Positions 24,001 through 27,000 of a DNA stretch of 29,020 nt are shown here, one piece after another. The position numbers were made by a program. Location of the stretch: the IMG/VR virus record IMGVR_UViG_642979322_000012. One strand, 5' to 3'. How positions within the stretch are numbered: position 1 is the first letter of the stretch; each line of letters opens with the position of its first letter. This DNA comes from a virus. Taxonomy: Duplodnaviria; Heunggongvirae; Uroviricota; Caudoviricetes.

Positions 24001-27000
24001 GATGAGCAGGAAACTCCGCTATGGTTTATCGGCTGCCGTTCTGGCGCTGATTGCCGCAGGTGCTTCTGCGCCTGAAATCCTCGACCAGTTTCTGGATGAA
24101 AAGGAAGGTAACCACACCACAGCATACCGTGATGGTGCGGGTATCTGGACCATCTGCCGTGGAGCCACCCGGGTGGATGGTAAGCCTGTTATTCCTGGCA
24201 TGAAGCTGTCGAAGGAAAAATGCGACCGGGTTAACGCCATTGAGCGTGATAAGGCGCTGGCATGGGTGGAGAAAAACATCAAAGTGCCGCTGACCGAACC
24301 CCAGAAAGCGGGGATCGCGTCATTCTGTCCGTACAACATTGGTCCCGGTAAGTGTTTCCCGTCGACGTTTTACAGACGAATTAATGCAGGTGATCGAAAA
24401 GGTGCCTGCGAAGCTATTCGCTGGTGGATTAAGGACGGTGGCAGAGACTGCCGTATTCGTTCAAACAACTGTTACGGTCAGGTATCCCGTCGTGACCAGG
24501 AGAGCGCGCTGGCGTGCTGGGGAATCGACAGATAAGAAGAATATTTTGCTGAAAAATGAGGTTTGCTTACATGGACGGATAACACGAAATCCTGCAAATT
24601 GGCAAAATGTAAGTGAATAAAGTCAAAGCAGTTGTTTAACACTCAGGCACCGTAATGATGCCTTTGTCATTTCTGCGCATCTCACGCGCATCTCACAACA
24701 CAGAACCTTTCAGGATGACCCTTGAGGATACCGGTTTGGCTGTCGGTGCCTTTCTGTGGGCTGGATTCCTGTGAGACAAGGTTCATCACTAAAAGGAAAT
24801 AACCGATGAATATGATGGCCGTGCCGTTTCACGGCAACTCTCTTTATGTAGTTAACCATAATGGCGAACCATACGTTCCCATGAAACCTGTCGTTGCGGG
24901 GATGGGGCTGGCCTGGCAATCACAGTTGGCTAAGTTAAGACAGCGTTTTGCGTCAACTATAACGGAAATCGTTATGGTTGCTGAGGATGGGAAACAACGC
25001 AATATGGTGTCCATGCCACTTCGAAAACTTGCCGGCTGGCTACAAACCATTAATCCCAACAAAGTAAAACCCGAAATCCGCGATAAGGTCATCCGGTATC
25101 AGGAAGAGTGCGACGATGTTCTTTACGAGTACTGGACGAAGGGTTTTGTCGTTAATCCCCGTAAAATGAGCGTGATGGAAGAACTCAACCAGGCTTGTGC
25201 TGACATGAAACGGGATAAAAACATTGCCAGTGTGTTTGCTACCGGGCTGAATGAGTGGAAACAGGTTAAAGCCGCGCATGTATCAAAAATCCGTACGCTG
25301 GTAAATGAAGCGAATATGCTGATTGATTTTGTCCTGGCTGATACAGGCAAAGGGAAAATAACAAAGGCGGATTGATGGGGTGGCTAATGATATCAGATAA
25401 ACTCATAACGCTGGTGAAGAGCCTCTGTGTACTTGTCGGCATTTCATTTTTAGTCATGCTGGTTGCCATTTTCTTTTCCACCGCCTGGCGAGTCCTGACG
25501 TTATCGGGACTGGTGGGGTGAAAGAGAGATGAACCGTGTTCTGTGTGTGGTGATTATTGTCCTGGCGGTTGGCTATGGTGCGCTGTGGCTGGCAACAAAC
25601 CATTACCGTGACAACGCGCTCACCTACAAAGCGCAGCGCGATAAAAAAGCCAGAGAGCTGGAACAGGCGAATGCCACCATTACTGACATGCAGGTGCGCC
25701 AGCGTGATGTTGCTGCGCTCGATGCAAAATACTCGAGGGAGTTAGCCGATGCGAGAGCTGAAAATGAAACTCTGCGTGCTGATGTTGCCGCTGGTCGTAA
25801 GCGCCTGCGGATCAACGCCACCTGCTCCGGTACCGTGCGTGAAGCCACCGGCACCTCCGGCGTGGATAATGCAACCGGCCCCCGACTGGCAGACACCGCT
25901 GAACGGGATTATTTCATCCTCAGAGAACGGTTGATGACAATGCAGAAGCAGCTGGAAGGGGCACAGGACTATATCCGCACTCAGTGCCTGAACTAAGTTT
26001 TGCTGATGCGCCGTATCGTCGCCGTATTCCTGCATTAACAGAGACCGCAGCCAGACAGGGAGACTCCTCTGCGAGAGTGTGCGGGGATAATCAAAAACGA
26101 TACACACCGGGGTTTACCGCGTTAACGGAGCGCGGTGTTGTCCCCTCATAGTCGCCAGTCCGGTGCGATGGTGGAAGAAACTGGATTTTGTTGCAAATGA
26201 TAACCATTATCATTTTGCGGGTCCTCCTGGTGGGGTGGGCCTGAACACGGGGCGGGCGGGCGCGGAAAAAGGCGCATTTTTGTGATTTTATCGTCATCAT
26301 CATCATGATGGTAACTTGTTGTTTTTAATGCTGTTAGTATTAAAAAGATGATGATTGTGGTTGTTTTTTGTTCGACATCTTTATATGGCGGCATTTCTTT
26401 ACAAAAAAACAGAGTCACTTCTGTTCTGCGGTTTATGTGGAGGGATGTAAATGGACGGCGAGCTGAAAAATATGAAGTTAAATATTAATCAACTGGCAGC
26501 CCTTTCAGGTCTGCACCGGCAGACTGTTGCCGCCAGAATGGCGGATGTTCCTCTTGCACCAGGCAGTAATGAAAAGAAAAAACTGTATCTCCTGACGGAT
26601 TTGATAACTTCGTTGCTGGAAAAACCACCATCTTCCGAAGATGAGGATATGGATCCTCACGCTCGTAAGGCATGGTATCAGTCCGAGCGCGAGCGTCTTA
26701 AATTTCAGCATGAAACTGTTCAGCTTGTGCCAGTCAGTGATGTCAGGCGGTCCTTTTCTGTCGTGGTGAAAGCGATAGTTCAGGTACTGGAAACCTGGCC
26801 TGACCGGCTGGAGAGGGACAGGGGGTGGACTGCATCACAACTGAATGAAGTACAGATTGTGGTTGATGAGATCCGCGACACACTGGAAAAGGCAGTCATT
26901 GACTGTTGTGATGAGGCCGATATGTGAATCAGGTGAACGAGAGCCATAGCCGCGCATCCGATATCTGGCGCGAAGTGGCCTCGCTGTTTCGCCCACCCAG

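Follow-up and report, generated by a model that had tools for sequence, protein, structure and literature searches.

A Fur-box palindrome next to cosQ in the Shiga toxin prophage Sp15 and at other lambda-like cos sites

Why should a sequence resembling the binding site of the host iron sensor Fur lie immediately before the packaging site of a prophage? The question is posed by IMG/VR virus record IMGVR_UViG_642979322_000012, a stretch of 29,020 nucleotides (the window, to whose positions all unlabelled coordinates refer) that corresponds, at 99.8-100% identity, to prophage Sp15 (VT1-Sakai) of Escherichia coli O157:H7 strain Sakai. Genes run in the order stx1AB, S, R, ant, Rz, a 454-bp gap, terS (ECs_2964), terL and portal, and it was in the gap that the original prediction, made from the sequence alone, placed a near-perfect Fur-like palindrome at 26195-26216. 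The palindrome is present as described. The string AAATGATAACCATTATCATTTT occupies these coordinates and contains AAATGATAAcCATTATCATTT (26195-26215), a perfect 9+9 bp inverted repeat; a repeat search returned the same two arms (26195-26203 and 26207-26215), 9 nt each, 100% complementary and separated by a 3-nt gap.

We based the assignment to Fur on consensus matches, on published bit scores of homologues and on chromatin immunoprecipitation (ChIP) data. The classical Fur 19-mer, GATAATGATAATCATTATC, is matched at 16 of 19 positions (26193-26211), and this is the only match with three or fewer mismatches in the 29-kb window, compared to 0.01 expected from dinucleotide shuffles. When every position of the window was ranked against the 19-mer, the palindrome came first and the operator of the stx1 promoter, with four mismatches, second. 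The 7-1-7 Fur core, TGATAATnATTATCA, is matched at 13 of 14 positions (26198-26212), in agreement with the single mismatch originally reported. The palindrome holds one near-consensus 7-1-7 site, and its A/T flanks give rise to weaker overlapping ones.

Occupancy of the site can be read from the Fur ChIP-exo (ChIP with exonuclease) data of Gao et al. (2023), obtained in Sakai, the same strain that carries Sp15. These include peak P90 (2918933-2918945 in NC_002695.1), which is intergenic, seen only under iron-replete conditions and assigned to the transcription unit ECs2960-2964, and peak P91 (2925841-2925853), also iron-replete and assigned to stx1BA. In NC_002695.2, the centre of the palindrome is at 2919064. 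This version has 5,498,578 bp, 128 bp more than version.1, whose length we take to be 5,498,450 bp by combining the paper's genome total with the plasmid sizes that we assume. In our mapping, the 128-bp offset moves P90 to 2919061-2919073, within about 3 bp of the palindrome. As a cross-check, the offset comes out at 122 bp for the stx1 operator and 135-141 bp for the cirA operator, and the spacing between P91 and P90 is 6908 bp vs. 6902-6905 bp between the corresponding motifs. In strain CFT073, where the accession version is the same and no offset is needed, peak P53 (1424699-1424711; Gao et al. 2023) coincides with the palindrome TGATAATTATTCTCG in a Nu1-type prophage, the palindrome centre (1424701) preceding cosQ by 12 nt. 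ChIP data had been proposed as a check on the original reading; with an iron-replete peak on the palindrome in Sakai and P53 on its CFT073 homologue, they show that Fur occupies the palindrome in vivo, solely under iron-replete conditions. P34 and P85/86, considered as further Sakai cos-site peaks, were located instead in the Sp4 early region and yoeE.

The site also has counterparts in lambda and in two K-12 prophages. Lambda has a perfect 15-bp Fur core at 48451-48466, in the same place relative to cos; the Qin site upstream of nohA is identical to that of lambda (~48449-48469) and the DLP12 site upstream of nohD/nohB reads GATGATAATTATTATCATTTT. The nohA coordinates shift by 1,976 bp between K-12 genome versions.3 and.2, and after this offset the centres of the Qin and DLP12 palindromes equal positions 1634624 and 579824 of Chen et al. 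(2007). These authors place 1634624 at -233 from nohA, score the nohA site at 22.3 bits and report its gel-shift by 150 nM Fur, while the nohB site, at 25.3 bits, is among their strongest predicted Fur clusters in K-12. A nohA fragment had been recovered earlier by Vassinova and Kozyrev through in vivo Fur selection, and a summit at 1634625 in ChIP followed by sequencing is listed among Fur-repressed operons (Myers et al. 2013). Fur binding by the palindrome is thus strongly supported, in vitro binding being known for the lambda-identical nohA oligonucleotide. The Sp15 site resembles the nohA and nohB sites in having its centre 13 nt before GGGTCC and some 43-44 bp ahead of the cosN nick, with a small-terminase gene downstream. 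It differs from the nohA/lambda core by one mismatch (T to C at 26204), its left context is the post-Rz block of Shiga toxin (Stx) phages rather than the ylcI/ynfO region, and it is accompanied by a variant cosN (GGGCGGGCGGG...) and by a small terminase subunit (TerS) of the DUF1441 family instead of Nu1.

What the palindrome lies next to is seen when the gap is aligned with the lambda right end. Lambda reads ...GATGATAATCATTATCACTTTAC GGGTCCTTTCCGGTGATCCGACAGGTTACG / GGGCGGCGACCT and the window ...AAATGATAACCATTATCATTTTGC GGGTCCTCCTGGTGGGGTGGGCCTGAACACG / GGGCGGGCGGGCGCGG, the slash marking the nick, and because of this alignment we identify the GGGTCCT that follows the palindrome as the homologue of cosQ. 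The original placing of cos in this gap therefore holds, both cosQ and cosN being found by the lambda alignment. Lambda cosQ itself presumably lies at 48473-48479. Only 3 nt separate the end of the palindrome from cosQ, and about 44 bp lie between the palindrome centre and the cosN nick further right, predicted from the alignment to fall between 26249 and 26250 on the top strand. The GC-rich block GGGGCGGGCGGGCGCGG (26249-26265), first noted as lying about 20 bp downstream of the palindrome, is cosN, and the actual distance is 32 bp. The 7-bp cosQ is highly conserved (Feiss et al.).

To see how general this arrangement is, we searched IMG/VR for the pattern cosQ-N20-22-cosN; the genuine lambda-like sites among the matches provided 110 unique flanks. 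A 7-1-7 Fur core with two or fewer mismatches was present in 59 of them and was perfect in 24; about 55-60% of the surveyed lambda-like cos sites thus have a Fur box abutting cosQ. The centre of the core fell 12-14 nt before GGGTCC in 53 of the 59. The box was found in 24 of 39 unrelated left contexts, together with many different cosN right halves, and with both types of TerS (30/45 for Nu1, 16/32 for DUF1441). Throughout the 1.12 Mb of DNA fetched, 67 matches to the Fur core lay directly before cosQ and 17 elsewhere, an enrichment of about three orders of magnitude above the surrounding phage DNA. From 52 distinct sites we derived the consensus tGcAAATGATAATcATTATCATTTt; flank positions -13 to -8 and +8 to +10, which were not used to select the sites, are conserved too, whereas the linker of 2-4 nt and the DNA further to the left of the box are not. 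A species-dereplicated scan of GTDB genomes returned mostly chance matches in GC-rich genomes and about 25 usable enterobacterial cos loci, 11 of which have the box; genera with a box include Citrobacter, Kluyvera, Phytobacter, Kosakonia and Superficieibacter.

Cos sites without the box carry other sequences at this position. In the Gifsy/mEp460 group, which is of the DUF1441 type, another short palindrome, GTCAGgCTGAC, abuts cosQ where others have the Fur box (mEp460, L005, 1680-1700; also loci L018, L019, L022, L033, L077, L088 and L172). Satellites resembling phage-inducible chromosomal islands (PICI) have a near-identical cosQ-cosN with an intrinsic terminator in place of the box. The PICI-like contigs, recognizable by integrase, primase-like and protease-capsid fusion genes, contain two to three lambda-type cosQ-cosN sites 0.8-6 kb apart, every one preceded by a terminator hairpin (L012, L025, L030, L038, L065, L093, L094, L097, L119 and L120). 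These terminators stand at the same spot, with 0-3 nt between them and GGGTCC, and would likewise restrict transcription into cos; they differ in being GC-rich, protein-free hairpins with a T-run and no iron input, whereas the Fur box makes a poor hairpin without compensatory changes. Since some phages and satellites have cosQ-cosN without the box, it appears to be dispensable for packaging.

Might the resemblance to Fur sites be a coincidence, the palindrome being instead a site for TerS, IHF or a phage factor, or a hairpin or terminator? It does fall within the region classically cloned as cos, the satellites have an intrinsic terminator at the equivalent position, and its transcript can fold into a weak hairpin with UUUU after it. 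The IHF consensus WATCAANNNNTTR, however, matches the window only at 8136 and 9374 and nowhere near 26195-26216. A TerS site is at odds with the occurrence of the same box beside TerS proteins of two unrelated families and with the position of the candidate TerS repeats to the right of cosN. The lambda cos subsites fare no better as candidates, as the palindrome lies to the left of cosQ, cosN and the repeats at 26296-26355 and overlaps none of them. The hairpin has a predicted energy of -8.7 kcal/mol (z = -1.8) and no terminator was called; moreover, the arms have undergone 114 one-sided changes vs. 3 compensated ones, and it is therefore the sequence, not the pairing, that is conserved. An Rfam search for an RNA or small RNA (sRNA) at the palindrome gave a match to PrrF alone, at 22.8 bits against a threshold of 90. 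Given also that conservation falls on the positions of the Fur 7-1-7 motif and that Fur occupancy has been observed directly, we regard an identity other than a Fur site as very improbable, and the suggestion that an IHF or terminase site merely mimics a Fur box is not upheld.

The palindrome could in principle belong to the lysis side of the gap or to the packaging side. The non-coding block that follows Rz (26000-26195, about 200 bp) matches no Rfam family and recurs with 92-97% identity in many Stx phages that have other packaging modules. In BP-4795-type Stx phages, homology covers Rz and the 200 bp after it, ends at the palindrome and gives way to a different packaging module; in Stx1_9793, the left context and palindrome are as in the window and then join a genuine lambda cosQ-cosN-Nu1. 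The palindrome therefore travels with the cos module and, judging from these junctions, is part of the cos/packaging module of lambda-like phages and not of the lysis module. Alternatively, Fur binding could be incidental, the palindrome persisting within a conserved block at a mosaic recombination joint beside cos, or as the operator left over from an ancestral leftward moron, with no selected role in Sp15. In favour of this, homology breakpoints concentrate where the palindrome and cosQ lie, the box is missing from about 40% of lambda-like cos sites, and many copies have one or two one-sided mismatches, as decay would produce. Fur-responsive neighbours also differ from case to case (a leftward gene in CFT073, ylcI/ynfO at the K-12 sites), and Sp15 is a defective prophage. 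Simple persistence is nevertheless hard to reconcile with a near-consensus box in 24 unrelated left contexts whose linkers and more distant DNA have diverged, with the conservation of flank positions that took no part in the choice of sites, with the strong enrichment over surrounding DNA and with occupancy in vivo in two different prophages. We consider it unlikely that the site has no selected role, while giving the idea some weight.

What, then, would Fur do at cos? Taking operator and role together, we lean, by a small measure, towards the palindrome being a genuine operator for iron-loaded Fur, at which holo-Fur would serve as a repressor of, or roadblock to, transcription entering cos. 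In the iron-sufficient cell, bound Fur would hinder RNA polymerase on its rightward course out of the lysis/moron region, through cos and into terS-terL-portal. Fur might block access to a weak promoter, dependent on context and with the TATCAT of the right arm as its -10, or it might act as a roadblock; in some prophages, Fur would also repress a leftward moron. In a lysogen, leakage of terminase and head-gene expression would then be lowest when iron is replete and would rise modestly upon iron starvation, in parallel with stx1. A promoter-like GTGACA-16-TATCAT (10/12) does overlap the Fur box in the DLP12-type context. In the fur deletion strain of Sakai, log2 changes relative to wild type are +1.12 for ECs2961, +1.57 for ECs2962 and +1.05 for ECs2963, and in CFT073 +1.57 for C_RS07365 and +2.33 for C_RS07340, a leftward unit across the CFT073 peak (Gao et al. 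2023). The stx1 operator offers a comparison within the same late region of Sp15. It too is Fur-regulated, with an iron-replete ChIP-exo peak; it differs in its poorer consensus match (15/19). At the cos-side site no promoter is predicted, and adjacency to cosQ is what defines it. The stx1 Fur site presumably sits between the -35 and -10 of its promoter.

Several observations weigh against this transcriptional account. The rise in the Sakai fur deletion is small, two- to three-fold, and could be due to read-through from the stx1 promoter or to SOS/prophage induction. In MG1655, genes at the DLP12 and Qin sites are unchanged in the fur deletion, and in W3110 the genes around these sites fall, with very low counts. 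No ChIP-exo peak was called at the DLP12 or Qin site in the K-12 strains, for which the near-identity of the two copies may be responsible. A crude consensus scan for a sigma-70 promoter over or just downstream of the palindrome predicted none in the window. Lastly, a purely transcriptional role would not account for the placement of the box 2-4 nt from cosQ. The original prediction had proposed an iron-responsive control element for the packaging genes: Fur binding is borne out by ChIP-exo in Sakai and CFT073 and by gel shift of the K-12 site, whereas control of the packaging genes by the palindrome is weakly supported, by the modest rise of ECs2961-2963, with no promoter predicted over the site.

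Because the tight coupling to cosQ is left unexplained by transcription alone, there is room for a role of bound Fur at the level of DNA. With Fur in place 2-4 nt ahead of cosQ, a terminase motor arriving from the left might meet a speed bump that makes recognition of cosQ and cosN more reliable; alternatively, bound Fur might protect an end of the phage chromosome, either the right one, which is exposed to nucleases, or the one injected first. The coupling is near length-invariant across unrelated contexts and two TerS families, and the box segregates with the cos rather than the lysis module, as seen in BP-4795-type phages. Slow-motor terminase mutants suppress cosQ mutations. Termination requires recognition of cosQ by the translocating complex (Feiss et al.), and the right end, which bears cosQ, has been described as a nuclease target. 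In lambda, the palindrome is contiguous with cos, is inherited with cosQ-cosN and lies inside the 238-bp inserts (48446-182); as the standard inserts of the Feiss laboratory start at 48442 or 48446, they have always contained the box. It is not, however, among the lambda subsites (cosQ, cosN, I2 and the cosB elements R3-I1-R2-R1), and the protein that binds it is a metalloregulator of the host, not terminase or IHF. Pointing away from a role on DNA are the absence of the box from the viable phage mEp460 and from the Gifsy group, the terminator that stands before a near-identical cosQ-cosN in PICI-like satellites, and the variation in spacing by plus or minus 1-2 nt. Our literature searches turned up no link between Fur and packaging, and we know of no fur phenotype for lambda growth. 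A selected function on DNA of either kind strikes us as improbable. We are likewise tentative about the proposal that the box is a selected accessory subsite of cos ('pre-cosQ'), through which iron-loaded Fur would act on packaging or its termination, on the fate of the right end or on late transcription; we think it doubtful, if conceivable.

As a Fur operator, the Sp15 site is already known, in the form of a ChIP-exo peak in the supplementary data of Gao et al. (2023), whose main text is silent on phage, and publications on Fur have covered its K-12 homologues since 2000 and 2007. Our searches found no paper that connects the Fur box with cos, cosQ or terminase, although the original cosQ papers may mention the dyad, and its conserved, position-locked coupling to cosQ appears to have gone undiscussed so far. 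Through this coupling, the packaging end of lambda-like prophages is connected with the iron sensor of the host, in Sp15 alongside the iron-regulated stx1 operon, and low iron might raise expression of toxin and of terminase and head genes together. Were the pre-cosQ proposal true, the virion output of lambda-like phages, including Stx phages, would be linked to iron status. In lambda, a top-ranking Fur site lies inside the fragment routinely used as cos, and the role of the box in packaging or late transcription has apparently never been separated from that of cosQ; the coupling poses a simple and testable question in a very well-studied system. Cosmids and high-copy cos plasmids may titrate Fur, and it was by such a selection that the nohA fragment was first recovered.

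The features of the region are collected in Table 1.

Table 1. Coordinates of the cos region and of the stx1 operator in the window; a slash in a sequence marks a nick, in the window a predicted one
Feature	Position	Strand	Remarks
stx1 promoter Fur operator (Calderwood and Mekalanos type)	19291..19309	15/19 minus, 14/19 plus	ChIP-exo peak P91
Rz (Rz1 embedded, 25749-25934)	25529..25996	+	last lysis gene
Fur-box palindrome AAATGATAA-cCa-TTATCATTT	26195..26215	no strand	centre C26205; ChIP-exo peak P90 on top
cosQ homologue GGGTCCT, packaging-termination signal	26219..26225	+	lambda right-end alignment ...ATCACTTTAC GGGTCCTTTCCGG...TTACG
cosN ACG/GGGCGGGCGGG(C)GCGG	26247..26265	no strand	aligned with lambda ACG/GGGCGGCGACCT/CGCGG, Stx1_9793, DLP12 and Qin
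cosB-like: inverted ATCATCATC (26296-26304) and GATGATGAT (26347-26355)	26296..26355	no strand	candidate TerS sites
Small terminase subunit ECs_2964, DUF1441 family	26451..26927	+	occupies Nu1 position
Large terminase subunit ECs_2963	26924..29020	+	extends past window end

The inverted ATCATCATC and GATGATGAT to the right of cosN are separated by 42 nt with an AT-rich core. Their position and inverted arrangement resemble those of R3-I1-R2 in lambda, and by this analogy they are likely to be cosB, the binding sites of the DUF1441 TerS; related motifs occur in mEp460 and mEp043. The terS gene had been called Nu1-like, which is right for its position, in the Nu1 slot, but not for its family, which is Pfam DUF1441 rather than Phage_Nu1; BLASTP detected no similarity of the Sp15 TerS to a Nu1 homologue. 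The description of 26000-26450 as AT-rich applies to about 26270-26450 alone (31-40% G+C), the part from 26000 to 26250 having 52-57% G+C. The cosN of the Sp15 type has 11 nt between the conserved CG flanks, compared to 12 in lambda and 10 or 11 in some relatives, and the cohesive ends of the Sp15-type group may therefore be shorter than 12 nt, as predicted from the sequence. The spacer between cosQ and cosN is 22 nt in this group vs. 20-21 nt (L071, L083, L105, L056, L119).

In the CFT073 prophage, the cos-side Fur box has a TonB-family gene about 700 bp to its left and, about 100 bp to its left, a leftward open reading frame whose start resembles a signal peptide (MKIRNILAISLATSS...); these left-side features span 455-781 and 1145-1465 of locus L131. 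Of 5426 complete E. coli genomes, 498 contain the Sp15-type region, often more than once. Sp15 has a third iron-replete Fur peak, P92, which is intragenic in the Q/nin region (ECs2975-2983; Gao et al. 2023), at an estimated window position of about 17140. Elsewhere in the window, Rfam gave a full-length match to the sRNA STnc100 immediately downstream of stx1B (20723-20932, plus strand, 176.7 bits), an ALIL pseudoknot, the frameshift signal of the IS3 family, at 12426-12542 (minus strand), which points to an insertion sequence (IS) element there, and the lambda cIII thermoregulator element at 7333-7391 (minus strand).

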